From positions 6,789-70,788 of the forward strand of contig CANQBB010000001.1 in assembly GCA_947588905.1 (NCBI GenBank): a DNA stretch of 64,000 nucleotides, given 5' to 3'. Both the position numbers and the translations under genes were made by a program. Each line of letters opens with the position of its first letter. Positions within the stretch are counted from its first letter, which is position 1. This document shows positions 8,338 through 44,954 of the stretch, in pieces. The notes beneath the pieces were generated by a model, which saw only the letters and a program-made list of their open reading frames with translations, was not told where the DNA came from and did no database searches. This stretch comes from an uncultured Clostridia bacterium (GTDB taxonomy: Bacteria > Bacillota > Clostridia > TANB77 > UBA1234).

Positions 8338-8349
8338 CTTTATAACCTC

Positions 8350-10314: not shown

Positions 10315-11188
10315 ATCCAAGCACCTCCATCTCATAGATAAATATTTCTTCAAGAGTCAATGGTAAAAAGTCTAAAATAACAGGATTCATTTCTTGCAAT
10401 ACTTTTTCATAGCCTTCTCTTTCGCCTTTCATAATTACAGTTGCAACACTTCCTGTTTTCTTAAAACTCATAACATTAAAGTTTTGAAAATCTTTTTCAG
10501 AGAAATCTCTTCCAAGTGATATTTGAATTTTAAACATATTTGTTTTTAATGAATCTATATCGCTTTCAAATAAAATACCACCTTTATGAAGTAATCCTAA
10601 ATTATCACAAATATCTTCAAGTTCTCTTAGATTATGGCTAGTCATAATAATTGTAGTTTCTTTTTTCTCCATTTGTTCAGCAATAATTTTTTTCATAAAG
10701 TTTCTTATAACAGGATCTATACCATCAAATGTTTCATCAAAGAACATATAATCTGCATTTGTCGCAATTGCACATATCAATGCCGTTTGACGTTTCATAC
10801 CTTTTGAAAAAGTTTGTATTTTTTGTTTTCTATCCAATTTTAATTTGTCAAATAGTTTAAATGCAAATTCTTTATCAAAAGTTTTATACATATTGTTATA
10901 AAAATTAACCATATCATTGATTGTATATCCTTTGAAAAAGAATAAATCATCTGGCACATAAACTAATTTTTGTTTAAACTCTTCGTCATCAGAAATTTCT
11001 TTTCCGTCAATCTCTATGCTCCCTTCATTTTTTTGAAAGATGCCCATTATAATCCTAAGTAGGGTAGATTTTCCTGCTCCATTGGCACCAATTAAACCAT
11101 AAATCGAACCTGTTTTTATGGTACAATTCAATCCTTCTAGCACTTTTTTATCGCCATAGGATTTACTTAGATTAGTGATTTTAATCAT
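10292..11188 (-). CDS. ABC transporter ATP-binding protein
   Basis: Walker A GANGAGKST, Q-loop, and a signature-like motif. ATG at 11186-11188 is preceded by AGGAGGGAG. The ORF-track start at 11218 is less likely. Confidence 0.75.
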   Translation of the reverse strand: MIKITNLSKSYGDKKVLEGLNCTIKTGSIYGLIGANGAGKSTLLRIIMGIFQKNEGSIEIDGKEISDDEEFKQKLVYVPDDLFFFKGYTINDMVNFYNNMYKTFDKEFAFKLFDKLKLDRKQKIQTFSKGMKRQTALICAIATNADYMFFDETFDGIDPVIRNFMKKIIAEQMEKKETTIIMTSHNLRELEDICDNLGLLHKGGILFESDIDSLKTNMFKIQISLGRDFSEKDFQNFNVMSFKKTGSVATVIMKGEREGYEKVLQEMNPVILDFLPLTLEEIFIYEMEVLGYEFNEIV

Positions 11189-11290
11189 ATCTCTCCCTCC
11201 TAATCCGTATTGTATCATCTGTACTAGTACAATGTCAATACAAAAATTAAAAAAAGTGGGCTATAATATTTTTATAGCCCCATTTTTATT

Positions 11291-13303
11291 TTAAAATTTA
11301 AATGAATCAATTTCTTCTGTTGTTTCCATGCTCCATGATTTAATCATTTTACTTGAAACAGTATAATATTTATCATCTATATAAATTATACGTTTCACAT
11401 TATCATTTTTATCATGAGATAATTTACCTTTTAAATTAAAACCATTTTCTATGCTAAAATCATAAACTAAAGCTCCATTGAAAATTACATCTCCATACAT
11501 TGGTGTTCCGTCATTATATTTTCCAGCATCTTCAGTAACTGTAGCAGGAAATGCTATTATACCTTTTTCTACATCTATCAATAATGCTTTATGATTATAT
11601 AATAGTTCTGAGTAACTTCCTCTTGCTCCAATTTTAATTGTGTGTATTTCTTTTGGATTTCTAAAATCTGAAACATCAAATATTGACATTTTAAGTCCAT
11701 TTGAATAAGCAACAACTTCCATTTCGCCTTCCCAATTTAGATAAGATTTTTCTACTGAATCTTCTCCAAAGCCAAGTATATATTTATCTGATAAAGGATG
11801 TAAATAACTGCTATATCCAGGTATTTTTAGCTCTCCTAAAACTTCTGGTTTTTTAGGATTACTTAAATCAATTACAAATAAAGGATCTACTGTTTTATAT
11901 GTTACAACATAAGCTTTATCTCCCATAAATCTTGTAGAGTATATCCTTTCTCCACTAGCTAGTCCTTCTAATTTTCCAATTTTATTTAAGCTTTCATCTA
12001 ATACATAAATATTATTTCCACTCTCGCCATCTGTAGTTGTTATTCTAAAATATCCATCATATTCTCCCATAGAAAATTGATTTAATAAACTACCTGGAAC
12101 TTTTCCAGTTGCAATATATTTAATGTTTCCATCTTCAATTTTAAATTTATGAATACTAGTATTTATTTCATAATTAGATGGTTCATAGCTAATCATAACA
12201 CCGCCAATTGCTTCTTCGCCACTAATTGTTGGTCCTATATATTTAGATACTGTTTTAGTAACATATAAATTTTCTGTTGAACAATAAATCTCGTTTCCAG
12301 CTCCTAAGTATGAATTGATGTTTACATCGCTTTTCATATCATCCAAGTTAAATGATGTAATAATCATATAATTACATTCAGAATCTTCTGCAAAATTAGC
12401 AAAACATCTTACTTTAGAAATTGGTAATTCTAAATAATCTCCACTAATGTTTGAGTCTTTATATATTGGCAAAACATTATTTTCATCAAAATCATAAAAA
12501 GAAATATATTTATTAGTTACAAGATATATACTACTTCCTATTTTTCTAGAAGAAACAATATTTCCTTCTGTTTCAACTTTTCTTAATAGTTCATAAGAAT
12601 TTATATCATAAATTAGCACATTAGTAATATTAGTATAAACTTCATAATTAAATTTATCACTATTTAATGTTTTTTGATTAATCATACTACTTCCTACTAC
12701 AATAATATATTTATCATCCAAATATAATTCTCTGCCATAAAAATCTTCTTCAAAATGAATTTCTTTCACTAAATTGATTTTATCTTCTTTATCTTCAAAA
12801 ATATATAAAATACGTTTTGACTGGTTTAAATAATAAATATATTTACCATTTGTTTTTATAATATCTGATTCATCGACATTTTCTTCTTGAATATTCGTTT
12901 TTGAATATTGTTTATTTTCCGCACCAGAAAAGTCGCTTTCCGGTGCCTTCATTACACTATTAATTGTTGCTGAATCTTCCGCTATAACTGCTTCATCAAA
13001 ATCAAAATAGTTGCCCTGTATATTATTATATTTTTCAGCAGTATCTTTTAAAACTTGTATAAGCTCTTCTTTTGAGTTAAATGCAATTAAATTTTCTTCT
13101 GCTTTCTCATCTTCAGTTTCGACAGTATCATTTTCCATTATCAAAAAATTATCACTATTTTTGTGCATAACCTTATTTCCTACAAGGACAATAGCACAGA
13201 TACATATTGCCATTGTTATAGATGAAATAATTTGCAATCTTTGATGTTTGTATTTTTTAGCTTTTTCTAAAATACTTTGCACTCTTTCATCATTATTCTT
13301 CAT
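11291..13303 (-). CDS. Putative anti-sigma factor: short cytoplasmic N-terminus, one TM helix, and an extracellular beta-propeller-like domain
   Basis: Overlaps the upstream ECF sigma gene by 11 bp. TM helix SSITMAICICAIVLVG. The roughly 600-aa ectodomain has repetitive beta-strand blocks. GGAGGG RBS. Confidence 0.45.
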   Translation of the reverse strand: MKNNDERVQSILEKAKKYKHQRLQIISSITMAICICAIVLVGNKVMHKNSDNFLIMENDTVETEDEKAEENLIAFNSKEELIQVLKDTAEKYNNIQGNYFDFDEAVIAEDSATINSVMKAPESDFSGAENKQYSKTNIQEENVDESDIIKTNGKYIYYLNQSKRILYIFEDKEDKINLVKEIHFEEDFYGRELYLDDKYIIVVGSSMINQKTLNSDKFNYEVYTNITNVLIYDINSYELLRKVETEGNIVSSRKIGSSIYLVTNKYISFYDFDENNVLPIYKDSNISGDYLELPISKVRCFANFAEDSECNYMIITSFNLDDMKSDVNINSYLGAGNEIYCSTENLYVTKTVSKYIGPTISGEEAIGGVMISYEPSNYEINTSIHKFKIEDGNIKYIATGKVPGSLLNQFSMGEYDGYFRITTTDGESGNNIYVLDESLNKIGKLEGLASGERIYSTRFMGDKAYVVTYKTVDPLFVIDLSNPKKPEVLGELKIPGYSSYLHPLSDKYILGFGEDSVEKSYLNWEGEMEVVAYSNGLKMSIFDVSDFRNPKEIHTIKIGARGSYSELLYNHKALLIDVEKGIIAFPATVTEDAGKYNDGTPMYGDVIFNGALVYDFSIENGFNLKGKLSHDKNDNVKRIIYIDDKYYTVSSKMIKSWSMETTEEIDSFKF

Positions 13304-13832
13304 AAGAGAATCCCTCCTTTTCTAAAACTTCTTTAAGAGAGTTTCTTGCTCTATATGCTAAATTTTTAATTTGTTTATTACTTTTTTTCATTACTTTGCC
13401 TATCTCTTCATAAGACATACCTTCAAAATATAACAAATGAATTACAGTCGCATAATCATCTTTAATCTTTTTCATGGCATCTCTTATATGTCTATTTTTA
13501 TCTGTTTTAATAATTAAATCTTCTAGCTTTTCTGTATCTTCAATTTCAGTCTCTAAAGATACAAACACTTTCTCTCTTTTTAAAGCATTAAGTGCTTTAT
13601 TTCTCCCTATTTTAAATAGATATGTTTTAAAAGATGAATCTCCTCTAAAGAAATGCTTATGTACAATCAATTCCATAAATGTATCTTCCATAAGATCTTC
13701 AGCTAAAGTAATGTTTTTTACAAAACCATTGATAAAATACATTAGATTATTTCCATACATATCTACTATTTCATTTAAACCACTCTTATCGCCATCAAGG
13801 AAACGGCGGTAGCTACTTGCACCGTTATCCAT
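13293..13832 (-). CDS. ECF-type sigma-70 family RNA polymerase sigma factor
   Basis: Region 2 (DLMEDTFMELIVHKHFFRGDSSFKTYLFKIGRNKALNALKRE) and region 4 (SYEEIGKVMKKSNKQIKNLAYRARNSLK). 179 aa. AGGAGG RBS. Confidence 0.75.
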   Translation of the reverse strand: MDNGASSYRRFLDGDKSGLNEIVDMYGNNLMYFINGFVKNITLAEDLMEDTFMELIVHKHFFRGDSSFKTYLFKIGRNKALNALKREKVFVSLETEIEDTEKLEDLIIKTDKNRHIRDAMKKIKDDYATVIHLLYFEGMSYEEIGKVMKKSNKQIKNLAYRARNSLKEVLEKEGFSYEE

Positions 13833-14025: not shown

Positions 14026-14101
14026 TGGAGCGGGAAACGGGGCTCAAACCCGCGACCTTCGCCTTGGCAAGGCGACGCTCTATCAACTGAGCTATTCCCG
14101 C
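14026..14101 (-). tRNA. tRNA-Gly (anticodon GCC)
   Basis: The reverse complement gives GCGGGAATAGCTCAGTTGATAGAGCGTCGCCTTGCCAAGGCGAAGGTCGCGGGTTTGAGCCCCGTTTCCCGCTCCA. Cloverleaf with anticodon loop TTGCCAA. CCA is encoded. Confidence 0.85.
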
Positions 14102-14317
14102 ATGAACAGTTATTATATTACAATAAAAATCTCAAATAGTCAATACTTATAGCAAATTTTTTTGGTAAAGCATAGATTCATCAAAAAATTATGGCATAAA
14201 ATTGTTGAAGAATTAGGCTTTTAAGTATAAAATTAAATTATAGATAATTACTTAATAAAGCAATAACAGGAGAATGTACAGTTGATTTTTATTACAAAAC
14301 ATATTGGAGATGATAGC

Positions 14318-15616
14318 ATGAAAATTAGTTGTAAGTCTTGTGGTGCAAATCTAAAATTTATTCCAAGCAAACAAATTGCTTGTTGTGAACATTGCGGAAA
14401 TACATATAAACCAGAAGAAATTGAATATGATGACAATATATTTGATAATTATAAAGAATATACTTGTAGTTCATGTGGAGCTAAATTGATTTCATCTGAA
14501 AAGACTGGTATTACTAGTTGTGTATATTGTCAAGGAAAAGAATTTGTAGTAGGAAAAATAAATAAAGATTATATTTTAACAGGTATTATTCCTTTTAGAC
14601 TAGATAAAGAACAGTTTATCAAAAATTATAAAGAGCAAATAGAAAAATTAGATAATGTTAAAAATGATTTTAAGGAAAGTTTAAAAAAAGCTAAAATTCA
14701 AGGAATGTATGTGCCTTATTCTTTTGCTAATAGTTTTTATAGAAAGCAATATGGCGAAGTACTTTTTACTTTATTGGAAGAAATTATACCTTATAATTTC
14801 GAAGATGTGAAAGACTTTAATCCTATATACTTGGATGGCCTAATGGCAGATACAATAGCAGTTAAAAAAGAGGAAAATTTTATAAAAACAAATGATAGCT
14901 CGTTTTATTGGGTACCAGTATGGGTAGCAGAAATAGAATACAAAAATGATATTTATTATATAGTTGCAAATGGGCAAACTTGGGAATTAGCAGGAATGTA
15001 TAAATCTACTGTAAAGAATTTTTTTCTCACTCAAAAGCAAGTAACATTTCAAGAAAAATTATCTTCTATTCATGCAAGAGAATCAATAAAAAGACAGAAA
15101 ATTAAAGAAATAAATAAAAATGCTTTAAAAAATTTAGATACACTGTCAAGTAATGAAGTGTTAAAAATAGAAAGAGAAAAAGAAAAAGAAAGATTGAAAT
15201 ATTTATGTATGAAAGAAGAAGCAGAAAATGCTAAGAAAAAAAATATATACTTATGTCTTAGATGGTTATTTTTTATATTATATATACTAGCACTTCTTGT
15301 ATTTTTTTTATCAAAGCCGGAAGACGAAAATATTCCTGGTTTTATTCTTATTGCTACTTTTGTGTATTTATTATTAAATGCTCTTTTTACATTTCATAAA
15401 GAAAATGAAGATAATACGTATTACGAAAAATTTTTAAGAGCAAATAATGAAATAAAAAATAATGAATATGAAGAAATGAGTAGAGCAGAAAATTCAGATA
15501 TTATCGATAAAATACTACAATTGCCAGAAGATAAAGTATATGAAAATGAAAGAAGTATATATCTTTTTACTAAAAAATATTCTTGGAAAGATAAAAATAA
15601 TAGTATGAAGTCATAA
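14318..15616 (+). CDS. Double zinc-ribbon protein (two CxxC...CxxC pairs), K/E-rich coiled-coil middle, two C-terminal TM helices; function unknown
   Basis: The ATG at 14318 is preceded by a GGAGA RBS, whereas the ORF-track start at 14282 is TTG. Motifs CKSCG..CCEHCG and CSSCG..CVYCQG. TM segments near residues 320-360. Terminator hairpin at 15627-15652. Confidence 0.55.
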   Translation: MKISCKSCGANLKFIPSKQIACCEHCGNTYKPEEIEYDDNIFDNYKEYTCSSCGAKLISSEKTGITSCVYCQGKEFVVGKINKDYILTGIIPFRLDKEQFIKNYKEQIEKLDNVKNDFKESLKKAKIQGMYVPYSFANSFYRKQYGEVLFTLLEEIIPYNFEDVKDFNPIYLDGLMADTIAVKKEENFIKTNDSSFYWVPVWVAEIEYKNDIYYIVANGQTWELAGMYKSTVKNFFLTQKQVTFQEKLSSIHARESIKRQKIKEINKNALKNLDTLSSNEVLKIEREKEKERLKYLCMKEEAENAKKKNIYLCLRWLFFILYILALLVFFLSKPEDENIPGFILIATFVYLLLNALFTFHKENEDNTYYEKFLRANNEIKNNEYEEMSRAENSDIIDKILQLPEDKVYENERSIYLFTKKYSWKDKNNSMKS

Positions 15617-15626
15617 GAAAATAAAA

Positions 15627-15652
15627 AACAGTATCGAAATACTGTTTTTTTG
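15627..15652 (+). terminator. Rho-independent terminator (aacagtatcgaaatactgtt plus a T-run)
   Basis: Perfect 8-bp stem and a T7 run immediately after the stop codon at 15616. Confidence 0.55.
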
Positions 15653-15725
15653 TTTTGTGGGTTACTAATTAATTTTTTTCGAAATTAATCTCCTATCAAA
15701 TTTTCTAATATTTAACTTTTTAGTA

Positions 15726-16097
15726 TTAGCCATTTAGTTCTTTTAAAGCTTTTGAAAATCTTACTATATCTGAAGGAAGCCATATCATAACAATTAAGCC
15801 AATAAAATCTACGCTAGCTATACCAAAAAAAGATAATACCAAAAGTATTAACATATAAATTTCAAATAACCAAGCTGCACTTATTCCATATCTTTTTCTT
15901 TTTGTTATCCCTAGTACCATACCAAAAAGTAAAGATAGTAGTGCTACATATAATACAAAATTAATTGGGTCTAATAATGTTGATATATTTATGAAAGCAA
16001 TTATTATTTCAATGACTAAATAAAAAAATCCTATTCCAACTATATTATTACCATATTTTTTTACTCTCTCTTCTACTGTTAAATTTTTCTTACTCAT
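15726..16097 (-). CDS. Small integral membrane protein (123 aa, 3-4 TM helices)
   Basis: ATG with GGGGGA RBS. Hydrophobic throughout. Confidence 0.4.
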   Translation of the reverse strand: MSKKNLTVEERVKKYGNNIVGIGFFYLVIEIIIAFINISTLLDPINFVLYVALLSLLFGMVLGITKRKRYGISAAWLFEIYMLILLVLSFFGIASVDFIGLIVMIWLPSDIVRFSKALKELNG

Positions 16098-16565
16098 AGT
16101 AAATTTTCCCCCTTAACTTATATAATATAAGTTGATTATATATATAATACATTAAATTTTCAATATTACTCAAATAAAATACTTAATAATAAAATACTCC
16201 TAAATTATTAAACAAAATGTTCAAATGATTTAGGAGTTTTTTTATAGCACATATGAATTAGCCTAGTCTATATTTTTCTAAATTAGAAAGTTGCCAATTT
16301 GTACAAATCTGAGCAGAATGATTTTTTGCAGTTTCAGCCTTGATAGTAGCTTCTATTTTGCCAATTTCTTTTTCATCCATCACACCCAATTTTGTCTTAT
16401 TATATAAAAGCGAAGTAGTTTTGATTCGTACTTTTCTAATTGCCATTTTCTTTCATAACCTCCTCAACAATTGTTTTCGAGATAGGAAACATATACCAAC
16501 ATCGCTACTATAACATAGAATACTTGTTTTTTCAAGCATTTCTTAGTAAGTATAACTAGCAAAAC

Positions 16566-16608
16566 AAAAAACAGTATCTTCGATACTGCTTTTTATTTTG
16601 GCTGGGCT
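16566..16608. repeat. Left copy of a 43-bp direct repeat: terminator hairpin plus the last 11 nt of tRNA-Gln
   Basis: aaaaaacagtatcttcgatactgCtttttattttggctgggct matches 19209-19251 in 42 of 43 positions. Confidence 0.6.
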
Positions 16609-16708
16609 AAATTATTTTTTTCTCTTAAAATTCGTCCATATCAATACTTCTAACATTTTTCTTTTTTGTAACTATAGTTCCAGAAATATTTATTCTTTCG
16701 ACTTTCTA

Positions 16709-16900
16709 TTATTTATGTGATTTACGCAATTCGATTTCATAAAGAAGCATTGTATTTATTTTATGTAATAGATTAAAATCTAACTTACTTAAATCTTTAA
16801 ATTTTTTATTTTTAATCTGATTATATATTTTAAAAAATTCATCTTTCTCCATTTTAACAATATAACTCCTTTTATTAAAAATCAATTTCATTTGAATCAT
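16709..16900 (-). CDS. Small protein (63 aa), translationally coupled downstream of the 456-aa gene
   Basis: ORF starts 2 nt after the upstream stop. K-rich. No recognised domain. Confidence 0.3.
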   Translation of the reverse strand: MIQMKLIFNKRSYIVKMEKDEFFKIYNQIKNKKFKDLSKLDFNLLHKINTMLLYEIELRKSHK

Positions 16901-16902
16901 TT

Positions 16903-18273
16903 TTATCTGGATTCTTTTTCATCTTTTGTAGTATCTTTAGATTCAACTAACCCTTGAAAACTTTCTACATTTTGTTCAATTCCCTCAATCAATTGTTCTT
17001 TAGAAAACAAAACTTGTTCTTTTTGACTTATAACATCCAAACAATTTGTATCAAATATTGCCAATGAAGGTAACTCCAGTCCACAATCAATATATGATTT
17101 ATTTATCATTCCACTAAAATATGAAGTAATATTATATGAAATTCTATTCATTCTATCTTCCACACTTGAAACTTCTCCTTTAATTTTCTCTTCACTATAC
17201 AATTTTAAAAATTCCATTCCTGATAGTTCATAAGATGCTCTTTGAGGCCAACTTTCTTCAGTAAAAATAGTAAGATCATCAATTAATATGTTATTTTGTC
17301 TTACTTTATCAACAAATTCAGAAAAATCTTTAAGTAACTCATTTTTCATAAGCGAGAAAAATATTTCATTTTCAAATACATCTCTTATATTTTTGGATTC
17401 ATCATATAAAGATAATAATTTTTCTTTTTCCTCATTAGATGCTTCAACATGTTCTAAAATATGCATAACACTTTCTTTTGAGGAATACTTTTTTAAATTT
17501 ATATATGGTAAAGATTTAATATGTGGATACATTCTTGAGGCATCTATATTTTTATCTGAACAATGATAAAGTTTCATTAATATAGGATTTAACATTCGTA
17601 CATCGATAGGATTTAATTTGCCTTCTTCCAAATTATCTGAACCACACAAGCACTCTGTAATTAATTTTGTAAATTTTTCATATTCGTGCAGTTGATTTTC
17701 CCAAACTTGCGAATTGTGAGGATTCAAATAATAGAAAGATCCATATTCTTGAAATTTTTGAGCAATATTTGAAATAGTAGGAAAAGCATATGGATTAAAA
17801 TTGTTATTAGCAAAAAGTTCAGGGTAAAATAATTTAAAAATCGATTCAAGTCCATCATCAACATCTAAAATTACACCCTTCGCATCTGGCATATTAAATT
17901 TCTTTTTTACTTCTTCTAATAATTTATCTCTTCCTTCTTTTTCTGAGCTTTCCCACTTCATTTCCATTTCATGTTTAACAGGTTCAAACACACTCATAAT
18001 TTCATTTGGTTTTACAATTATAATATCTTTTAATTTTGCAGAAATAACATTCGTAGTTCCATCTTCTTTACAAAATTTTGAAATTAAGTCTGGTGCTCTT
18101 TCTACTAAAAACCTATGCCATCCACAAGTCATTCCATCTGAACTTTCAGGTAAACTAAACCACATTGCATTCTTTGGCTTAAAAAATATATGTCCTTTAT
18201 ATTGATATTCACAATTTTCAAATTCTTTAGTAGATAAACAAACGAATTCTGTTTTATCATCAATTCTTGGCAT
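16903..18273 (-). CDS. Uncharacterised 456-aa cytoplasmic protein; sole sizeable cargo of the tRNA-Gln-associated islet
   Basis: ATG with GGAGG RBS. No TM helix or signal peptide. Cys/His-containing N-terminus (CLSTKEFENCEY...CGWHRF). I recognise no family. Confidence 0.55.
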   Translation of the reverse strand: MPRIDDKTEFVCLSTKEFENCEYQYKGHIFFKPKNAMWFSLPESSDGMTCGWHRFLVERAPDLISKFCKEDGTTNVISAKLKDIIIVKPNEIMSVFEPVKHEMEMKWESSEKEGRDKLLEEVKKKFNMPDAKGVILDVDDGLESIFKLFYPELFANNNFNPYAFPTISNIAQKFQEYGSFYYLNPHNSQVWENQLHEYEKFTKLITECLCGSDNLEEGKLNPIDVRMLNPILMKLYHCSDKNIDASRMYPHIKSLPYINLKKYSSKESVMHILEHVEASNEEKEKLLSLYDESKNIRDVFENEIFFSLMKNELLKDFSEFVDKVRQNNILIDDLTIFTEESWPQRASYELSGMEFLKLYSEEKIKGEVSSVEDRMNRISYNITSYFSGMINKSYIDCGLELPSLAIFDTNCLDVISQKEQVLFSKEQLIEGIEQNVESFQGLVESKDTTKDEKESR

Positions 18274-18559
18274 ATACTACCTCCTATTATATTTTTAATT
18301 ATATAATAAAGCTTACTTGTAAATTTTATTATTTAAAAAATGTATATGTAAAACTACAATTTTTTTCAATTTTTCTCTTTTATTCTATATAATAATAAAT
18401 TTGTTTGATGTGTAAGCAAATGTTTAGGTATCAAAAAGTTATAAGAAATTATGTATTAACAATAAAACTTAATTTCTTCTATATCATCAATATGATAATA
18501 TTCTTTCCATTTAGTAGTAATTAAAAAATAATGTCTTGCAATTACGTTTAATAATTTAC

Positions 18560-18778
18560 TTAATTCATCTTCTGGTATTCTACTATTTCACTATAGTTGC
18601 CTTCCCATACGGTTACTTTATATGTTGGTAATTGTATTCTAACAGAATCAAATCCATTTTTAGTAGGTCTTTCAAAATGAACATCAATACACTCTGTATC
18701 ATTTTCTATATATACATTTGAAAAAACGACTTCTGTTTCATCTTCATATTTAACATATGGATACATCATTTTTTTCAC
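18560..18778 (-). CDS. Small hypothetical protein (72 aa)
   Basis: ORF only. Lies inside the islet. Confidence 0.25.
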   Translation of the reverse strand: MKKMMYPYVKYEDETEVVFSNVYIENDTECIDVHFERPTKNGFDSVRIQLPTYKVTVWEGNYSEIVEYQKMN

Positions 18779-19208: not shown

Positions 19209-19251
19209 AAAAAACAGTATCTTCGATACTGTTTTTTATTTTGGCTGGGCT
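19209..19251. repeat. Right copy of the 43-bp direct repeat (terminator plus tRNA-Gln 3' end)
   Basis: See 16566-16608. Confidence 0.6.
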
Positions 19252-19317
19252 GGGAGGATTCGAACCGCCGAAATGCCAGAGTCAAAGTCTGGTGCCTTAC
19301 CACTTGGCTACAGCCCA
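19242..19317 (-). tRNA. tRNA-Gln (anticodon TTG)
   Basis: The reverse complement gives TGGGCTGTAGCCAAGTGGTAAGGCACCAGACTTTGACTCTGGCATTTCGGCGGTTCGAATCCTCCCAGCCCAGCCA. Anticodon loop CTTTGAC. CCA is encoded. Confidence 0.8.
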
Positions 19318-19330
19318 ATATTTATATACA

Positions 19331-19408
19331 TGGGGTGAAAGATGGGACTCGAACCCACGACCTCCAGGGCCACAACCTGGCGCTCTAACCAACTGAGCTA
19401 CATCCACC
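19331..19408 (-). tRNA. tRNA-His (anticodon GTG) with G-1
   Basis: The reverse complement gives GGTGGATGTAGCTCAGTTGGTTAGAGCGCCAGGTTGTGGCCCTGGAGGTCGTGGGTTCGAGTCCCATCTTTCACCCCA. Anticodon loop TTGTGGC. The extra 5' G pairs with C73. Confidence 0.75.
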
Positions 19409-19594
19409 ATCTTTGTTACATGCAAGTTATATTTTAGCCTATTTTTAGCACATTGTCAAGAAAAATATACCTATCAAAAGAAAAAGTTTTGTGAAAAATA
19501 GTGTAAATGCAAGCAATTAGTGATACAATTATTTAATCATATCATGTATATGAGATATAAAACAAGGTAAATTATAATATAAAAGGAGTCTTAT

Positions 19595-20326
19595 ATGTTA
19601 GAATTTATAAATGTTACTAAACAATTCGATACTGTTACAGCCGTAAAAAATGTGTCTTTTAGCTTAGATGCTAGTAAAGTTCTTGGCATCGTTGGCAGAA
19701 ATGGAGCTGGAAAATCTACTATATTTAGAATGATTTTGAACCTTATAGAACCAACATCTGGTGAAATTAAATTTAATGGTGAAAAAATCAGCAATGATGT
19801 ATTAAATCAATTTGGCTATTTACCTGAAGAAGGTAGCATAATGCCTCAATATACAGTTTTAGATATATGTGAATATTATGGAGCATTAAAACTAATGACT
19901 AAAGATGAGGTATATAATAATTTAACTGCTTGGCTTAATGAATTTAATATTTTAGAATATCTTAATGTTAAAGTAAAAAAGCTTTCTAAAGGGAATAGAC
20001 AAAAAGTACAATTTATTGTATCAGTATTGCATAATCCAGATTTTATTATACTAGATGAACCATTTTCTGGTTTAGATCCTATAAGTGTCGAAGAGCTTGA
20101 GAAAGCAATCTTAAAATTAAAAGAGCAAGGTAAGACAATCATATTTTCTTCTCATATTATGAGTCATGTAGAAAATATTTGTGATGAAATTTTAATGATA
20201 AATAAAGGCGAATCTTTGTTGCAAGGCAATTTAAAAGATATAATTTCAAATTATAAAATAAACGAAAAGCCTGCTAATTCTTTAAATGATATTTTTATAG
20301 ATAAGGTGGGTGAAATTGATGAATAA
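19595..20326 (+). CDS. ABC transporter ATP-binding protein
   Basis: Walker A GRNGAGKST, signature LSKGNRQK, Walker B ILDEP. AAGGAG RBS. Confidence 0.8.
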   Translation: MLEFINVTKQFDTVTAVKNVSFSLDASKVLGIVGRNGAGKSTIFRMILNLIEPTSGEIKFNGEKISNDVLNQFGYLPEEGSIMPQYTVLDICEYYGALKLMTKDEVYNNLTAWLNEFNILEYLNVKVKKLSKGNRQKVQFIVSVLHNPDFIILDEPFSGLDPISVEELEKAILKLKEQGKTIIFSSHIMSHVENICDEILMINKGESLLQGNLKDIISNYKINEKPANSLNDIFIDKVGEIDE

Positions 20327-22514
20327 TGATAAGGTTAAAGAAATAATAAAATTTTCTTTTATTAAAAATATACAAAACAAATGGTTTATTATTTTTAATA
20401 TTTTAACTTTAATTAGTATAGTTCTAATGGTAAATTGGAGTTCTATATCTAATTTATTCAAACCTAAAGATGAATTAAAAGTATTTGATATAGTTTTGAT
20501 AGATAATAGTAATCTAGTTTATGATAGTTTTGTCGAAAAATTTTCTGATGATAAAAATTATAAGCTAACTAAATCTACAGAAAATACTTATACAGCAGAA
20601 AATATACCTGATGATTTAGTTATTTTAGAAGTCACACCTGATGAAGAAAAAATGTTCACCACATCAGTTATTTCAAAAGAAGGTATCGAAACAACAAAAT
20701 ATAATCCTATCAAAGACACTCTTTTAGATGTTAGAAATAAACTATTTGCAGAAAAATATAATGTTACTGATGAAGAATTAGATATATTTCAAAGTGATTT
20801 AGAAATAAATAGAATTATGCTTTCTGTCAATGCAGAAAATTCTACCACGAAAGAATTTATAAAATTATTTTCATCTGCTTTCACTTATATAATTACAGTT
20901 TTTATATTTTCTAAAATGGCAAATGAAATTGCTAGCGAAAAGCAATCGAAATCAACTGAATATATTTTAACAACCGTATCATCAAAAGAATATTTATTTG
21001 CAAAAATATTTAGTAACATCGCTATTTTGCTTGTTCAAGGTCTTTTCTTAATTGTATATTATTATATTGCTGCAATTATTTTTAATTTAATAAATATTGC
21101 TTCAACTGATTTAAGCCTTTCAACTGTAACATTTTCAAGCATATTAAGTAAAGATATTGTATATTATATTTTAGCTTTGATTATTTATAATGTATTAAAT
21201 TTAATATTACTTTGCATTATTCAAGCAACCGTTTCTTCAAAAGTTAATTCAACTACTGAAGCAGGTAATACTGTATCTTTACTCATATTTGTAATATTAC
21301 TTGCATATGTTGCAACTGTTTATATTATAACACCATATACAAAAATGAATTTATGGGTATATATTGTGTCTTGCATCCCAGTATTATCAGCATATTTTGT
21401 ACCAGCCATGATGGTCATTGGTCAGGCTACAATATGGCAAATTATAATATCTTTAGCTATATTGATTGCATCAATACCTATATTATTTCATTATAGTGCT
21501 AAAACATTTAAAAATGGAATTTTAGATTATACTAAAGTCAAAATCAAAAATAAGAAAGAAAAAACTTTAGAAGAACAACAGAAAATATATTTAACAAAAC
21601 GAAAAATGCAAAATGTAGGTTTTGTTATAGGCATTGCAATAATAATTTATTTTGGTTTACAAACAGTTTTAACATTATTGTGTGGAATAGTACTACCAAC
21701 CTTATTTAGCAATTTATCTGAAACAGATATAACTTTAATAATGCAAATTATTTTACAAGTAATCTCATTAGGAGTATCTGCATTTTGGATATTATCTTAT
21801 GTTGAAAATAAAAAAGAAAAACGCAAAAAAGTAAATTTGAAAAATAAAATCTGTATAATTTTAATTGCTTTATTACTAATATTTGGTTTGCAATATTTAC
21901 TTAACTATCTTCTTTATCCTGCCATAGGTTTAGATTATTCTACCACTGATGTATTTGATATAAGTTCAAATTCAAGTTTACTAAGTAAAATTATATTCAT
22001 ATTAGCCATTAGTGTAACACCTGCAATATTCGAAGAATTATTCTTTAGAAAAGCTGTTATATCATTTACAAAACAATATGGAACTACCTTTGCTTTAATC
22101 TTTTCAGCCTTATTATTTGGAATGCTTCATATGAATTTATCACAATTTTTATTTGCTTTCATAATAGGAATTGTTTTTGGAATGATTTACTTGTACACAA
22201 ACGATATAAAAATTACAATGTTTATTCACTTTATAAACAACGGTCTTGCCGCCATTGAATTGATATTACCAGAATCATATGGAATTATAATAGTTCTTAT
22301 ACTATTAGTATGTTTAGTACTAGGACTTGCTTTAGCTCTAATTATGCTATCTAAGAAAAGATATGGAGAAAAGTTCAAAAATATTTGTCTTAAAAAAGTT
22401 TCTTTATCATCTTTTAACTCAAAATATAAATATATATTTACTGATTATACATTTGATATTTCAATGATTTTAGTTGTTCTTATGAGCATACTAACTGAAA
22501 ATATGTTAAGATAA
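20319..22514 (+). CDS. ABC-2-type permease fused to a C-terminal CPBP (CAAX protease / Abi) intramembrane domain
   Basis: The ATG at 20319 follows an AAGGTGGG RBS and overlaps the ATPase stop. The N-terminal permease half has about 6 TM helices. The C-terminal half carries CPBP motifs FEELFFRKAV, FGMLH and HFINN. Confidence 0.6.
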   Translation: MNNDKVKEIIKFSFIKNIQNKWFIIFNILTLISIVLMVNWSSISNLFKPKDELKVFDIVLIDNSNLVYDSFVEKFSDDKNYKLTKSTENTYTAENIPDDLVILEVTPDEEKMFTTSVISKEGIETTKYNPIKDTLLDVRNKLFAEKYNVTDEELDIFQSDLEINRIMLSVNAENSTTKEFIKLFSSAFTYIITVFIFSKMANEIASEKQSKSTEYILTTVSSKEYLFAKIFSNIAILLVQGLFLIVYYYIAAIIFNLINIASTDLSLSTVTFSSILSKDIVYYILALIIYNVLNLILLCIIQATVSSKVNSTTEAGNTVSLLIFVILLAYVATVYIITPYTKMNLWVYIVSCIPVLSAYFVPAMMVIGQATIWQIIISLAILIASIPILFHYSAKTFKNGILDYTKVKIKNKKEKTLEEQQKIYLTKRKMQNVGFVIGIAIIIYFGLQTVLTLLCGIVLPTLFSNLSETDITLIMQIILQVISLGVSAFWILSYVENKKEKRKKVNLKNKICIILIALLLIFGLQYLLNYLLYPAIGLDYSTTDVFDISSNSSLLSKIIFILAISVTPAIFEELFFRKAVISFTKQYGTTFALIFSALLFGMLHMNLSQFLFAFIIGIVFGMIYLYTNDIKITMFIHFINNGLAAIELILPESYGIIIVLILLVCLVLGLALALIMLSKKRYGEKFKNICLKKVSLSSFNSKYKYIFTDYTFDISMILVVLMSILTENMLR

Positions 22515-22563
22515 AAAATACAGCATTAAAATAGCTATGTTAAAACTATTTTAATGCTGTTTC

Positions 22564-23823
22564 TTATATTTCTTTTATAACATCTTCCAATCCTTTAATC
22601 AAATTTTTCCCTGTACTAATATCATTTTGATAATGTTCCATTAAATATGGCTCTATATTATATTTTATTGTCATCTTTATATCTTGATTGGTCATTGGTT
22701 TGCAAAAATAAGAATGCCCTATTTTTGCATTATCTTCTAGATTTTTGTTTATACCCACTATTTCATTTATTACTTTAGTCATAGAATCATTTTTTAAATA
22801 AAATTGTTTAAATTTTTCGTTTTCAAACATTGGTAATATTGTGTAAAAACAAAATCTTCTTCTAAATGCATAATCTTTTTCAAAGCCACTATCAAAATTA
22901 TTCATTGTACCTATTATATAAATATTTTCAGGAACATAAAATCTCTCTCTTGAACATGCTAGTTCTATATAATTTTCTTTTCCTCTTTTATCTAACTCTA
23001 TTAAAGAAAATGCCTCTCCAAAAATTTTAGAAATATTTCCCCTATTTATTTCATCAATAATTACAAAATACTTATTTTCAGGGTCATTTCTAGCCTTATT
23101 ACATATTCTCTTGAAGCAACCTCTTTTATATTTATATATACCTATATCATCAGGTCTATACCCTTCCATAAATTCATCACTAGAGTACGTTTCATGAAAT
23201 TGTACACAAAGCATTTTTTCTTCATCTTTTTGTCCTAAAATAGAATATGCCATTCTTTTAGCAATATATGTTTTACCAACACCTGGTACACCTTGTAATA
23301 TAACATTTTTTCTAGTTAATATTAGAGAGCGAAGTTCATCATAATCTTCTTCTTTAAAGAAAACTTCTTCTAAAAACTTTTCTTTATCATAACTTTCATA
23401 ATATCTATATTGCTTTTGAGGATTTAATTCTCTTATCATGCTATATATTACTTCATATTCTCTTTGAGATAATTTAAATAAAGTTCCTTGAGTATATCTA
23501 AAAACTTCTAAATTTGCTAGTTCTATGTGACGTTCTATATTATATCTACTTACAGTATCAGTAACTCCCTCTACTTTTTCAAACATAACTTTGTTATTAT
23601 TTATTTCTTCAACAACCTTACATAATCCTATAATTTCATTACTTGGTTCCAGTTCATAAGCTATAACTAAAGAATCTTTCTTTATTTCTGCAAAATTTTT
23701 ATATAATGTTCTTGGAGTACCATCTTCATTTAATGCTGTATAATAAAATCTATCTCCTACATCTAAATCTCTAAATCGTATCATTTTAGGGTTTATGCTA
23801 AGCCACCAATAATTATTTATCAT
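22564..23823 (-). CDS. McrB-family AAA+ GTPase with an N-terminal EVE/PUA-like domain; no McrC partner
   Basis: P-loop LQGVPGVGKTYIAKRMA, FHETYSSDEF, DEINRGNISK, GTMNNFDSG, FRRRF. The N-terminal 140 aa (YWWLSINPKMIRF...) is EVE-like. It is flanked by a + strand gene, with a terminator upstream. Confidence 0.65.
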   Translation of the reverse strand: MINNYWWLSINPKMIRFRDLDVGDRFYYTALNEDGTPRTLYKNFAEIKKDSLVIAYELEPSNEIIGLCKVVEEINNNKVMFEKVEGVTDTVSRYNIERHIELANLEVFRYTQGTLFKLSQREYEVIYSMIRELNPQKQYRYYESYDKEKFLEEVFFKEEDYDELRSLILTRKNVILQGVPGVGKTYIAKRMAYSILGQKDEEKMLCVQFHETYSSDEFMEGYRPDDIGIYKYKRGCFKRICNKARNDPENKYFVIIDEINRGNISKIFGEAFSLIELDKRGKENYIELACSRERFYVPENIYIIGTMNNFDSGFEKDYAFRRRFCFYTILPMFENEKFKQFYLKNDSMTKVINEIVGINKNLEDNAKIGHSYFCKPMTNQDIKMTIKYNIEPYLMEHYQNDISTGKNLIKGLEDVIKEI

Positions 23824-23947: not shown

Positions 23948-24883
23948 TTATTGATTAAAACTAGCTTCATATTTACTAACCCATATTCCAGTCAAATCTA
24001 ATACATTATCTCCAGTACCATATTGGAATGAACTTGGAAGGGTATATGTATCTCCATTAGCACTTGTCGTATCATTAGTTAAATTACTAAAAATTATTTT
24101 TGCACCAGTAGTTCCAACACTTGAAGTTGTATATCTAGGTATCCAAACATATGCACTACCCTCGGTAGTAACTTTTTTACCTACTAATTCTGAAAGTGAT
24201 GCTTTTCTAACTGCAGCATTATCAAATCCTTCAACTGCTAAATCATCTTTAAGCATAACATTTGCCCAAGCCATTTGCTCTTGTGAATAATCATACCAAT
24301 CAGTATCATCTGCACTTGTAACAACCCATTCACTTCCACTTAATTTAACAGGTACCATACCATCACTTAAAACTGGTTTATTAACTTTTTTAGCATCATC
24401 ATATTCAACATCTGATAGCACGTCTTTTCCTCCCCCCATATCTTTCTTTAAGTCATTTAGGGAATAATACACTTTATCTTGATACAATACACCGCTTATA
24501 GATACAACATTACCTTGCTCATAGTTTATAAGATAAGCTGCATTTACATTGTCTAGGCCTAATTGATCAAAATCACTTTCGTTGTCTAATAAATACCAAC
24601 CATCTGCACCAGAATATGTTTGCTTAGTACTTCCAACTCCTACTTCCATTGGTTCGTAGTCTAATCTACCAACATATGCATAAAAATCAGGGTTAATTTT
24701 ATGTACTAATGTCCTATTTACTACAGCATCGATAATTTCATGAACTTCATATGCAGTTTTAGTTTCCATAGCAACATCAGTATTTCTATTTAAACCATAA
24801 TATATTGTTACCGCTGCAAGTATAATAATAACTATTATTGTTATAATTAAAGCAACAATCGTTATACCTTTTTTATTTTCCAT
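23948..24883 (-). CDS. Degenerate type-IV-pilin-like protein (pilin-type N-terminal helix lacking Phe1 and Glu5) with a roughly 270-aa extracellular domain
   Basis: N-terminus MENKKGITIVALIITIIVIIILAAV follows the prepilin pattern KKGFTLVELL..I.I.GILAA, but with F changed to I and E changed to A. AGGAGG RBS. Confidence 0.45.
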   Translation of the reverse strand: MENKKGITIVALIITIIVIIILAAVTIYYGLNRNTDVAMETKTAYEVHEIIDAVVNRTLVHKINPDFYAYVGRLDYEPMEVGVGSTKQTYSGADGWYLLDNESDFDQLGLDNVNAAYLINYEQGNVVSISGVLYQDKVYYSLNDLKKDMGGGKDVLSDVEYDDAKKVNKPVLSDGMVPVKLSGSEWVVTSADDTDWYDYSQEQMAWANVMLKDDLAVEGFDNAAVRKASLSELVGKKVTTEGSAYVWIPRYTTSSVGTTGAKIIFSNLTNDTTSANGDTYTLPSSFQYGTGDNVLDLTGIWVSKYEASFNQ

Positions 24884-24941: not shown

Positions 24942-26690
24942 TCAATATTTAATGTTAAAATAATCATACTTAATTGCTAAATCATCTAATATTATTTTTT
25001 CTCTATCTGAGCAAGTAGCTATAATTATTTGCCTATTAGTATCCTTTAGGCAAGAAAGTATGTTTTTCAGTCTTACATCATCAAAATAAGCAAAACATTC
25101 ATCTAAAATAATAGGCAATTCTCCCAAATTTTTAGAGATTCCAAATCTAAATCCTAAATAAAATTGATCAATTGTACCAATACTTAATTTACTAACAGGG
25201 ACTAATTCCCCAAGTGAATTTTCTGCTAAGATTCCAGCTTCATTGTTATAATAAATTTTTTCATATCTATTATTTGTTGTTTCTTTTATTGATTGTTTAA
25301 TATTTTCTTCCATTTTGGGAATTACATCTTGTTTTAGTTCTTCATATGCTTCACTTAATTTATCAATAGCAATATTTATAACTTTTCTTCTAGTACTTAG
25401 CACATTCTTTTTTTCTTCAAGAGATGCTAATTGTTCTTCAACTTCTGATAATCTATCTATATTTTCTCTTAAACTTCCCTCTTCTATTTTTATTTTATGT
25501 CCATCCAAAATTAAATCATTCTTCTTTTTTTCTAATCCACTTATTAAAGATTTTAATTCTGATATCTTTCGTTCTATCAATGTTTCTTTTATTCCTTTTT
25601 GAATTAGCTTATCTAATTCTTTTTGTTCTTTTTTATTAACTTCTTCTTTTATAACTGTAAAATCTAAAACATGATTATCTTTTGAATCAATTTTATTACT
25701 ACATTTTAAAATTATAATTGCCAAAATAGCAAATACTATTTCTAAAATAATCCAATAATAATTTTTATAGTAGCACAATATTCCAGCAGTCAAAATTGCA
25801 AATAAAGAAATTATACTTAAAAATATTTTGAATTGTTTTTTTGATTTAGAAATTTTTTCTTGTTTTTCTTTTTCATTCACTTTTAAAGTTAATTCATATG
25901 TTTTTTCTTTTTCATTCAACAAATCGCTATATTTTTCTTTTATTTCTAAGATTTCCTTTATCTCTTCCATATCAGAATTTATCTTTTTTAATTGTTCTTC
26001 TATTCCCTTAGAACTTTCATCTAAAATATCTTTTTTATCTCTATTGTTTAGAAGGTTTAATCTTTGCTGTTTCTTTTCTAATATTTCTCTATCAATTAAA
26101 TTGATTGGCTTATTTTGAGATCTGTCAGTTCCTATCTCATCTAAAACCTTTTTTTGAAGTTTAGTTTTAATCTTCTCAAAAGATATATTTTCTTGACCAC
26201 TTTGAAGTATATTAGAAAGTTTTTGAACTATATTTTTTTGCGATTGCATATCAACAGAAATTTCTTTTTGATTTATAAGCAAGGTATTAACAAATGTTTC
26301 TTCATCAATACCCAAATGAGTCATTCCAAGCTCTACACCTCTTGTTTTATCTTTATTAAAGGTGTTTGTTATATCGTTTCCATTACTGTCATAAACTTTA
26401 CAATTATTTCTATTAAAATCTCTAAAAGCAGTATATGTTTTTCCATCAATTTCATAATCTATTTTTCCGCTAAAATCAATATCTTTCCATGGTTTAAATC
26501 TTTCAAATTCAGAAAATTCATTACCTGCTTTATTTCTATTTATACCATAAAAAATGCATTTAATAAAATTTATAATTGTTGATTTACCAGACTCATTTTC
26601 TCCATATAATAAGTTAAGTCCATTATTAAATTCTATAGTTTTATTTTCTAAATTACCAAAGCCATTGATTTGTATTTTTTTTATAATCAT
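24942..26690 (-). CDS. YhaN-like SbcC/Rad50-family ATPase with a coiled coil interrupted by a two-helix membrane hairpin
   Basis: N-terminal P-loop LLYGENESGKST. Long coiled coil. TM pair FKIFLSIISLFAILTAGILCYY / WIILEIVFAILAIIIL in the middle. C-terminal signature and D-loop region (ILDECFAYFDD). Its start overlaps the yhaO-like stop. Confidence 0.6.
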   Translation of the reverse strand: MIIKKIQINGFGNLENKTIEFNNGLNLLYGENESGKSTIINFIKCIFYGINRNKAGNEFSEFERFKPWKDIDFSGKIDYEIDGKTYTAFRDFNRNNCKVYDSNGNDITNTFNKDKTRGVELGMTHLGIDEETFVNTLLINQKEISVDMQSQKNIVQKLSNILQSGQENISFEKIKTKLQKKVLDEIGTDRSQNKPINLIDREILEKKQQRLNLLNNRDKKDILDESSKGIEEQLKKINSDMEEIKEILEIKEKYSDLLNEKEKTYELTLKVNEKEKQEKISKSKKQFKIFLSIISLFAILTAGILCYYKNYYWIILEIVFAILAIIILKCSNKIDSKDNHVLDFTVIKEEVNKKEQKELDKLIQKGIKETLIERKISELKSLISGLEKKKNDLILDGHKIKIEEGSLRENIDRLSEVEEQLASLEEKKNVLSTRRKVINIAIDKLSEAYEELKQDVIPKMEENIKQSIKETTNNRYEKIYYNNEAGILAENSLGELVPVSKLSIGTIDQFYLGFRFGISKNLGELPIILDECFAYFDDVRLKNILSCLKDTNRQIIIATCSDREKIILDDLAIKYDYFNIKY

Positions 26691-26699
26691 ATAGCACCT

Positions 26700-27746
26700 C
26701 TATTTCATCATTTGATATATTAAATCAACCGTTTTCATTGTTTCTTGCTTTTCTAATTCAGACATATTTTCCATTTCATCCAAAATCTTTTTTGTAAATA
26801 ATCCTTTTAGATTTTTCATTTGCTTTATATTTTCAAAATCATATGGCAATGTTGTACAATCTTTTATTTCACAAATATTTTTATTTTCTTCAGTTATACA
26901 CTCTATCAATTCATCTATATTAAAATTTCTAGTTCCACAAATTTCAATTTTATAAAATTTATTATCTTCAATCTTTAAACTTTCCATTACCTCATGTATG
27001 TTTGAATAATTAGAAATATCTAATTTTATTTTTTCAAATTCTTTATAGTCAAGAGGAACAAATTCTAAATCACATTTTTCCTTCGTTATCTCTCCTTTTA
27101 CGAAACCATGTTTTCCTTCTTCATCAAATCCACAAGATATTAAACTTCCAGGATAAATTATTCTAGAATCGTCAACATTTTTTTCATGTATATGTCCAAG
27201 TGCTACGTAGTCAAATTTATTTAAATCTTTTTCTTTAATGTCATGATACTTTCCATCTGCACCATTTAAAGTGCCATGTGTTACAAGAATATTTATTTTA
27301 TCTTCATTTTCAATTTTTATATTTGCTATTTCATTTGAAGAAAATTCATAATCATTAAATCCAATACCATAAATATCTACATCATCAAAACTAATCATTC
27401 CATATTCACTATTAAAAATAGTTACATTACTTGGCCAATCAAATGTGCTATATGGAGAATTTTTTATAAGTGGATCATGATTTCCTGGTGCAATAAAAAT
27501 ATTAGTATCACTAATCAATCCAAAATTAGAAATAATATATTCAATTGTACTTTTTTCAACATACTTTTGCTCAAATAAATCTCCCGAAATAAACAAAAAC
27601 TCAACTTTTTCTTTTTTTACAAATTGAATAACATCTCTAAATGCTTGCTTTTGTTCTATTCTTCTTTTCTTTATTAGTTCTCTATTTCCTTTAAATGAAA
27701 GCATTGGCATATCAAAATGCACATCGGCTATGTGTACAAACTTCAT
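26700..27746 (-). CDS. YhaO-like SbcD/Mre11-family metallophosphoesterase (nuclease subunit)
   Basis: Motifs MKFVHIADVHFD, GDLFE, GNHD, GHIH. 348 aa. AGGAGGA RBS. Confidence 0.7.
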   Translation of the reverse strand: MKFVHIADVHFDMPMLSFKGNRELIKKRRIEQKQAFRDVIQFVKKEKVEFLFISGDLFEQKYVEKSTIEYIISNFGLISDTNIFIAPGNHDPLIKNSPYSTFDWPSNVTIFNSEYGMISFDDVDIYGIGFNDYEFSSNEIANIKIENEDKINILVTHGTLNGADGKYHDIKEKDLNKFDYVALGHIHEKNVDDSRIIYPGSLISCGFDEEGKHGFVKGEITKEKCDLEFVPLDYKEFEKIKLDISNYSNIHEVMESLKIEDNKFYKIEICGTRNFNIDELIECITEENKNICEIKDCTTLPYDFENIKQMKNLKGLFTKKILDEMENMSELEKQETMKTVDLIYQMMK

Positions 27747-27827
27747 TATATCCTCCTAGTTTCTTTTTAAGTATAATAGTCATTTCAAACAAATTTTTAT
27801 TTCGTTCAAAATGACTATTATTAAACA

Positions 27828-43989: not shown

Positions 43990-44138
43990 GAAACTAACCC
44001 TCCCAATTTTTTATTGCCAAATTATTGTATCATAGTTGTTTTGTTATGTCAACTGTATTTTGATAAGCTCTACCTCAAAAAAATAATTTTCTAACTATAC
44101 AAAAAAGAGGGGGCGGTTTTCTCACCGCCCCCAAGAAA

Positions 44139-44879: not shown

Positions 44880-44954
44880 TATAAAACCTCCTTTAATCGT
44901 CACTCTTAGTTTCCCAAATATTATTATACCACATTTTGTAAACTAGCTCAACTA

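Follow-up and report, generated by a model that had tools for sequence, protein, structure and literature searches.

The characterised systems that come closest in function to the one described here are found in two toxin clusters, those of streptolysin S (SagE with SagGHI) and of the Bacillus subtilis sporulation killing factor (SkfC with SkfEF), where a protease of the CPBP family is encoded beside an ATP-binding cassette (ABC) exporter of the ABC-2 type. CPBP enzymes cut peptides and proteins at or within the membrane, Rce1 being one example. The role of SagE has been summarised in PMC9298176, a review that also covers the established link of CPBP proteins with bacteriocin immunity and processing. 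In this study a two-gene unit was analysed in which the same pairing of CPBP protease and ABC-2 exporter is found within one polypeptide. It lies on a stretch of 64,000 nucleotides (the window) from an uncultured gut Clostridia bacterium (assembly GCA_947588905.1, contig CANQBB010000001.1, positions 6,789 to 70,788 of the forward strand) and consists of a gene for an ABC ATPase, followed by a gene for an ABC-2 permease that continues into a CPBP intramembrane protease. Whereas the Sag and Skf components are separate polypeptides encoded inside toxin clusters with precursor and modification genes, the two halves are fused here and the pair stands alone among housekeeping genes.

Conceptually close are the peptidase-containing ABC transporters (PCATs) such as PCAT1, ComA and LagD, in which a protease is likewise fused to an ABC exporter and peptide cleavage is coupled to export. 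In PCATs the peptidase is a soluble C39 cysteine peptidase at the N-terminus, the fold is type IV and the nucleotide-binding domain (NBD) is fused, whereas the window system has a C-terminal intramembrane glutamic protease, a predicted type V fold and a separate NBD, with PF12698 and PF02517 as the only domains of the fusion. The likeness is one of analogy, since neither the protease nor the transmembrane domain (TMD) is homologous. Type V exporters are dimeric, and lipid-linked or amphipathic substrates enter them laterally from the membrane (Wzm/Wzt, TarGH, ABCG, PmtCD, LanFEG). By analogy with PmtCD, LanFEG, Wzm/Wzt and ABCG, the same lateral handling of membrane-phase substrates is proposed for the present system, although all of these exporters, unlike the fusion, lack a protease domain.

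ABC exporters have also been tied to intramembrane or alternative proteolysis. Intramembrane proteolysis by RasP requires EcsAB (PMC2996298, PMC7478892), and overexpression of a Staphylococcus aureus ABC transporter (SAUSA300_0351-0353) leads to an alternative cleavage of preproteins that bypasses SpsB (PMC5013292). These cases differ from the present one in that the protease is an S2P metalloprotease (RasP) or is not named, in that the partners are separate proteins, and in that the permeases belong to other families. The S. aureus CPBP glutamic endopeptidase MroQ, finally, acts on AgrD, from which it removes the N-terminal leader, and its gene lies outside the agr locus; a possible coupling of its cleavage to transport has been named as an open question (PMC9388083).

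Both halves of the fusion protein were recognised above the Pfam gathering cutoffs. ABC2_membrane_3 (PF12698) matched residues 24-393 over model positions 1-342 of 347 with 59.2 bits (cutoff 31.6), and the Rce1-like/CPBP family (PF02517) matched residues 560-645 with 66.0 bits (cutoff 22.4, E = 3.7e-18). An earlier note on this DNA had described the locus as an ABC exporter whose permease is fused to a CPBP domain, which is confirmed by these matches; the alignment of the C-terminal motifs to PF02517 had been set beforehand as the test that could refute it. The three motifs satisfy the CPBP pattern EExxxR, FxxxH and HxxxN/D. That note had the open reading frame (ORF) end in this motif set; the set is complete as claimed, but it is followed by a transmembrane (TM) helix and a conserved tail. 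Stand-alone CPBP relatives also possess the tail (P0224, for instance, matches profile positions 418-728), so it is a trait of the CPBP subfamily and not of the fusion. By its motifs the CPBP domain is catalytically intact, and endopeptidase activity is predicted.

The catalytic residues are strictly conserved. E572, E573, R577, F600, H604, H637 and N641 were invariant in 26 close homologs, and the same seven did not vary among 24 fusions with identities as low as 19-20%. No segment of the protein is more conserved than the CPBP core (column conservation 0.75, with 0.72 for the N-terminal helix and TM1), and the pairwise identities of the permease and CPBP halves correlate with r = 0.82. Because of this combination of invariant residues, core conservation and correlated halves, the sequence comparison indicates that the fusion is old and stable and that its catalysis is under selection.

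Table 1. Position of the features of the ATPase/fusion pair in the window, with its recurrent neighbours at related loci.
Feature	Position (nt)	Strand	Remarks
Candidate sigma-70-type promoter, ATGAGA-17-TATAAT	19550..19578	+	Upstream of operon; consensus scan, 10/12 matches
ABC transporter ATP-binding subunit, 243 aa, DrrA/ABC-2 type	19595..20326	+	PF00005, E 1.9e-29
Fusion gene: ABC-2 permease, linker and CPBP intramembrane protease, 731 aa plus stop	20319..22514	+	
N-terminal amphipathic interface helix (aa 3-18) and TM1 (aa 21-47)	20319..20459	+	AlphaFold2 secondary structure, hydropathy
Acidic alpha/beta domain between TM1 and TM2 (aa 48-178), predicted extracytoplasmic	20460..20852	+	
TM2-TM6 of type V ABC-2 transmembrane domain (aa 179-395)	20853..21503	+	
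Invariant cytoplasmic motif EKxSKSxEY (aa 207-215)	20937-20963	+	Within TM2-TM6 segment
Lys-rich linker (aa 396-430), predicted cytoplasmic	21504..21608	+	10 K/R in 33 residues; pLDDT <50 for aa 396-415
CPBP/Rce1-like glutamic intramembrane endopeptidase domain, 8 predicted TM helices (aa 431-682)	21609..22364	+	pLDDT 80-94
CPBP motif 1, EELFFR (aa 572-577; E572, E573, R577)	22032..22049	+	Invariant
CPBP motif 2, FGMLH (aa 600-604; F600, H604)	22116..22130	+	Invariant
CPBP motif 3, HFINN (aa 637-641; H637, N641)	22227..22241	+	Invariant
Conserved C-terminal tail (aa 683-731): basic segment, then final hydrophobic helix	22365..22511	+	
17-bp hairpin	22520..22560	.	Between fusion gene and convergent McrB-like gene
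Recurrent neighbours: queA-[pair]-tgt-cardiolipin synthase (cls); tyrosyl-tRNA synthetase (tyrS); mini-RNase III			Related loci
Recurrent neighbours, continued: LemA; MYG1-family protein; thioredoxin-like protein			Related loci

A word-indexed search returned more than 120 full-length homologs of 725-790 aa with 42-68% identity. All but a few were annotated with both Pfam domains and the remainder with PF02517 only; the few named ones carry merely the label 'CPBP family intramembrane metalloprotease [Clostridia bacterium]'. With over 100 independent full-length homologs containing both domains, the fusion is not an assembly artefact. When the family profile was compared with 1.84 billion cluster representatives, the best 150 matches included 38 full-length fusion representatives (50% identity clusters; one belongs to Butyrivibrio fibrisolvens), stand-alone ABC-2 permeases of about 435 aa covering positions 3-413 only, and stand-alone CPBP proteins of about 330-450 aa covering positions 415-730 only. 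Species-representative genomes of the close clade are without exception metagenome-assembled genomes (MAGs) of uncultured Clostridia/Eubacteriales from the gut or rumen, recovered from samples of roe deer, sheep, rabbit and Hadza humans. The Streptococcus matches of the genome scan were plain 269-aa CPBP proteins beside acc genes, not fusions, and were discarded.

A distant member with 19% identity is present in the cultured Butyrivibrio fibrisolvens (GCA_000420985.1; L032, 3658-8328), labelled in IMG as 'ABC-type Na+ efflux pump permease subunit/membrane protease YdiL'. The system there is a heterodimer-style variant, with an ATPase of 327 aa that has a DrrA C-terminal domain, a plain ABC-2 permease of 456 aa and an ABC-2/CPBP fusion of 775 aa. 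Genes for an AgrC-like histidine kinase and a LytTR regulator lie 2.3 kb upstream, and one for an M15 peptidase lies downstream. As the organism is cultured, this variant is a candidate for experiments.

The architecture itself has already been catalogued, in the dual IMG annotation and in NCBIfam as the equivalog NF041647 (ABC_perm_CPBP), which has the same two domains in the same order; it is uncharacterised. The NF041647 model covers the window protein in both its halves (residues 241-649, model positions 235-632 of 636). The protein scores 79.7 bits, however, where the cutoff is 435; the distant fusions that were tested reached 61-148, and the window protein is about 95 aa longer than the model. 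Because the score lies so far under the equivalog cutoff, the window protein is placed by sequence in a separate lineage with the same architecture, outside NF041647. The searchable literature holds no experimental function for NF041647 and only one incidental mention of a domain hit. The MroQ equivalog (NF046050) aligns over the full CPBP half with its eight TM helices (residues 442-651 against 9-224 of 243, E = 1e-12). The catalytic motifs are the same, and like mroQ the fusion gene is not linked to a precursor gene. With 48 bits against a cutoff of 270 the window protein is not an MroQ member, however; MroQ is a stand-alone protein lacking a transporter module, and no agr-like locus was seen in the window.

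The layout of the fusion protein was derived from hydropathy, the positive-inside rule and an AlphaFold2 model (mean predicted local distance difference test score, pLDDT, 74.4; predicted TM-score, pTM, 0.67). In this model the permease half adopts the type V TMD fold, with its interface helix and, inserted between TM1 and TM2, an extracytoplasmic domain, and the CPBP half a multi-pass helical fold like that of Rce1 and SpdC. Structural matches of the N-terminal half were ABCG8 (10.9), Wzm (9.8), PmtD (9.7), KpsM (9.5), NosY (9.5), CcmB (8.7) and TarG (8.2), and the domain between TM1 and TM2 matched two solved fragments described as 'ABC-2 transporter domain', 2p0s_B (7.8) and 3cni_A (6.8). 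Foldseek with the whole chain indicated the same folds at E-values that were not significant, and a sequence search of the PDB with the family profile yielded arylphorin noise only.

All three ATPase motifs, Walker A (GRNGAGKS, residue 34), the signature (LSKGN, 130) and Walker B (FIILDE, 150), are intact, and the subunit has no C-terminal accessory domain. Its top NCBIfam matches are LptB, GldA, lantibiotic-protection and DrrA ATPases, all under their cutoffs. In the ORF list of the window the two ORFs of the pair (19595-20326 and 20310/20319-22514) overlap each other on the plus strand, and nearly all other genes of the surrounding region lie on the minus strand. The fusion gene probably starts at ATG 20319 rather than at GTG 20310, giving a product of 731 aa, because the database gene call (P0001) has this length and all homologs start with MNxxK. 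The ribosome-binding site AAGGTGG precedes this ATG, and the ATPase and fusion genes overlap by 8 nt at the ATPase stop codon, which points to coupled translation of the two. The ATPase ATG at 19595 is preceded by the ribosome-binding site AAAGGAG.

Since promoter-like sites in the region did not exceed the shuffled expectation, the candidate promoter upstream of the operon is weak evidence. A search for riboswitches and leader RNAs was negative. The hairpin behind the fusion gene was scored on the minus strand and places a palindromic stem directly after the fusion stop codon too; it is likely a bidirectional terminator. The ATPase and fusion genes form a self-contained two-gene operon that is chromosomally inherited.

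Gene neighbourhoods were clustered over 13 loci and then over 35. The ATPase gene is the sole universal neighbour of the fusion gene, directly upstream of it in 34 of the 35 loci; the remaining locus is truncated by the end of its contig. Each of the other recurrent neighbours is confined to one lineage, and all of those with a Pfam annotation are housekeeping genes; a CspA-like cold-shock protein, also recurrent, was recognised by sequence alone, and SMC and SpoIIE genes are near the pair in some loci. In one divergent clade (L050-L053, L062) the pair is inserted between queA and tgt on the same strand, followed by cardiolipin synthase; queA and tgt are normally neighbours. tRNA genes adjoin the pair in most loci (the window, L003, L005, L010, L011, L013-L015, L017, L018), and in the window these are tRNA-Gln and tRNA-His (19242-19407, minus strand), divergent and 190 nt upstream of the pair. 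No recurrent regulator or sensor was found beside the pair in the 35 loci. Small ORFs of 18-110 aa within 2.5 kb on each side were clustered in search of a precursor peptide, and the only conserved clusters were translated tRNA genes.

Across the window, L010 and L013 the ATPase is 76-78% and the fusion 52-58% identical, with 40-88% for adjacent chromosomal genes; this divergence in step with the chromosomal neighbours is consistent with vertical descent. A fused copy was found in none of the 72,556 plasmids and 50,697 phage records, which gave partial matches to single domains only. A scan of viral contigs yielded no relative of the fusion, and when the region was compared at the nucleotide level with plasmids and phages, a tRNA was the only match. 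The window is ordinary chromosome of a low-GC, spore-forming Clostridia-type bacterium, with genes for Ddl, a Mur ligase, DnaJ, SLH-domain proteins, YpeB, a ComEA-like protein, PBP5, monogalactosyldiacylglycerol (MGDG) synthase and four tRNAs.

Two further roles were considered and rejected. A part in defence, as the old 'Abi' label of PF02517 might imply, was dropped, as PADLOC contains no model that matches the fusion and the matches of the ATPase reflect generic P-loop similarity. A sortase-like role of the myxosortase type was dropped as well, the surface proteins of the window having no C-terminal hydrophobic/basic sorting signal.

The reading favoured here, to which we give a probability of roughly 0.4, is that of a constitutive machine that cleaves and extrudes membrane-embedded peptides, with an endogenous substrate encoded elsewhere. 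The complex would be (ATPase)2(permease)2, a stoichiometry that we infer from type V exporters, with each permease tethered through the cytoplasmic Lys-rich linker to a CPBP endopeptidase. The CPBP domain would cut a membrane-embedded or amphipathic segment of a peptide or protein inside the bilayer, and ATP hydrolysis by the ABC-2 module would then extract the substrate or product and expel it from the membrane, the 1:1 fusion enforcing the coupling of cleavage with extrusion. Cleavage and extrusion are proposed because the stable 1:1 fusion keeps both activities conserved, and an endogenous, unlinked substrate is preferred over a local bacteriocin, since the operon has the behaviour of a core gene pair and neither a precursor nor a regulator is linked to it. 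Candidate substrates may be an unlinked peptide of the signal or pheromone type, comparable to AgrD for MroQ, or leftover signal-peptide and TM fragments, comparable to those of EcsAB/RasP. MroQ, EcsAB/RasP and the S. aureus transporter SAUSA300_0351-0353 serve as precedents for this reading. Tentatively, the protein might even be a true processing exporter within the membrane, a type V counterpart of the PCATs in which the CPBP product is handed directly to the ABC-2 path; this appears possible but doubtful.

Several points weigh against the cleave-and-extrude machine. Literature searches turned up no experimental work on any ABC-2/CPBP fusion, and no substrate was found. The coupling of proteolysis to transport is read from the fusion itself, as the neighbourhoods of the sampled stand-alone halves lend it no support: the closest stand-alone permease (P0186) and the stand-alone CPBP protein P0224, one of each being sampled, have no neighbouring counterpart. 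The housekeeping status of the pair would follow from its context in MAG contigs, and some ABC-2 resistance pumps are likewise chromosomal and constitutive, so that an exogenous substrate would fit this context too.

The main rival, which we consider unlikely on balance, is an orphan pump for constitutive resistance to membrane-active peptides of foreign origin, for example bacteriocins, lantibiotics or antimicrobial peptides of the host animal. The inserted peptide would be degraded or disabled by the CPBP domain and expelled by the ABC-2 module, which would protect a gut or rumen bacterium that is itself no producer. Such a role would fit the bacteriocin-rich habitat, all homologs coming from gut or rumen samples, as well as the resemblance of the ATPase to lantibiotic-protection ATPases (TIGR03740, E = 1e-43, below cutoff), and immunity to bacteriocins has been demonstrated for CPBP/Abi proteins of several species (Kjos 2010 and others, summarised in PMC9298176). 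Typical inducible peptide-resistance modules, however, have a sensor or regulator, and none adjoins the pair. Immunity genes are typically strain-variable and accessory, whereas the pair is found in housekeeping contexts, apparently by vertical inheritance, and not on plasmids or phages.

Less probable is an ordinary ABC-2 efflux pump of the NatB type for small molecules or ions, in which the role of the CPBP domain is unrelated, or structural or regulatory. CPBP proteins of this kind exist, as SpdC and Abx1 are non-proteolytic and scaffold other membrane proteins. The IMG label of the Butyrivibrio member names a Na+ efflux pump permease, and the closest stand-alone permeases work with no CPBP partner nearby. 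Unlike in SpdC, however, all catalytic residues of the fusion are invariant to 19% identity and the CPBP core is the best conserved part, pointing to selection on catalysis, and the stable co-evolution of the halves argues for a joint function.

Very improbable is the interpretation offered in the earlier note, namely an exporter dedicated to self-immunity against, or maturation of, a bacteriocin of the host's own; SagE with SagGHI and SkfC with SkfEF would be its analogues. A producer-linked immunity gene is expected to travel with its producer locus. The side-by-side arrangement of CPBP protease and ABC-2 transporter in the streptolysin S and Skf clusters would suit this interpretation, as would the AgrC-like kinase and LytTR regulator near the distant Butyrivibrio fusion. 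None of the 35 loci, however, has a linked precursor or modification enzyme, or another biosynthetic gene or recurrent regulator, the small-ORF clusters are tRNA genes and the annotatable recurrent neighbours are housekeeping genes. The 64-kb window holds no bacteriocin genes and no genes for ribosomally synthesised and post-translationally modified peptides (RiPPs), lanthipeptides, radical-SAM enzymes, cyclodehydratases or double-glycine transporters. The observation that no bacteriocin precursor is visible near the pair therefore stands. The proposed immunity exporter finds no support in the context, but the architectural part of the note's interpretation is right, and the interpretation as a whole is partly supported.

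Scarcely plausible is a site-1-type protease for an anti-sigma factor, in which the fusion would cleave the anchored Beta_propel protein as PrsW does RsiW and the ABC module would clear the fragments: PrsW-type proteases were reportedly described by Pei et al. in 2011 as distant relatives of the CPBP family, and an extracytoplasmic function (ECF) sigma factor gene with an overlapping Beta_propel gene lies directly downstream of the pair in L010, L013, L036 and L037 and 6 kb away in the window (11291-13832), but this linkage is seen in just 5 of the 35 loci, all from closely related genomes, and is absent from every other clade, so that shared synteny is more likely, and in the window the two units are on opposite strands, with tRNAs and about 5 kb of unrelated ORFs between them.

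Further observations were made around the pair. The cluster containing these two genes (7987-13832, minus strand) comprises a GntR regulator, an unannotated 667-aa protein, a second ABC ATPase, the membrane-anchored Beta_propel protein (PF09826) and the ECF sigma factor; clusters of this type are those found downstream of the pair at the four loci named above. Between tRNA-Gly (14026-14101) and tRNA-Gln/His lies a block (14282-18778) with ORFs of 444, 123, 63, 456 and 72 aa. The three largest have no counterpart in the syntenic L010, L013, L036 and L037, and four of the five ORFs were scanned with no Pfam match above cutoff; the block may be a small island flanked by tRNAs. On the other side of the pair a McrB-like AAA_5 protein is encoded (22564-23823, minus strand; PADLOC REase_II, E = 1e-15) whose N-terminal domain is weakly EVE-like and which has no visible McrC-like partner; a McrB-like gene adjoins the pair in only 5 of the 35 loci. 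Compared with L013, the pair and the McrB-like gene of the window are inverted relative to the ECF sigma cluster.

The gene next to the McrB-like one (23948-24883) encodes a protein with a pilin-like hydrophobic N-terminus. It is followed at 24942-29795 (minus strand) by a SbcC/SbcD-like pair (AAA_23, Metallophos) and then a lone coupling protein of the VirD4/TraG type (PF02534, E = 3e-81), near which no other type IV secretion genes were seen. Further on, the region 44001-46000 has a GC content of 0.39 against a background of about 0.27, with SH3_3-domain proteins and a pyrimidine nucleoside phosphorylase. A giant ORF of 3069 aa (54725-63934, minus strand) with DUF285 and leucine-rich repeats (LRR) is presumably a surface protein and lacks a C-terminal sorting signal.

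CPBP proteases are very common bacterial membrane proteins and are poorly understood, members having been assigned to immunity, peptide maturation and regulation. For annotation, the present results call for caution: a CPBP or 'Abi' domain beside an ABC transporter is not enough to assign a role in bacteriocin immunity. A conserved fusion with selected catalytic residues argues that cleavage and extrusion cooperate in at least some lineages, and the operon offers a compact two-gene system in which this cooperation could be studied. If the protein is a true processing exporter, it would be the first direct evidence of CPBP proteolysis mechanistically coupled to ATP-driven export. It would also provide a natural single-polypeptide model, including a version in the cultured Butyrivibrio fibrisolvens, for the question that the field of MroQ and the autoinducing peptide (AIP) calls open (PMC9388083).

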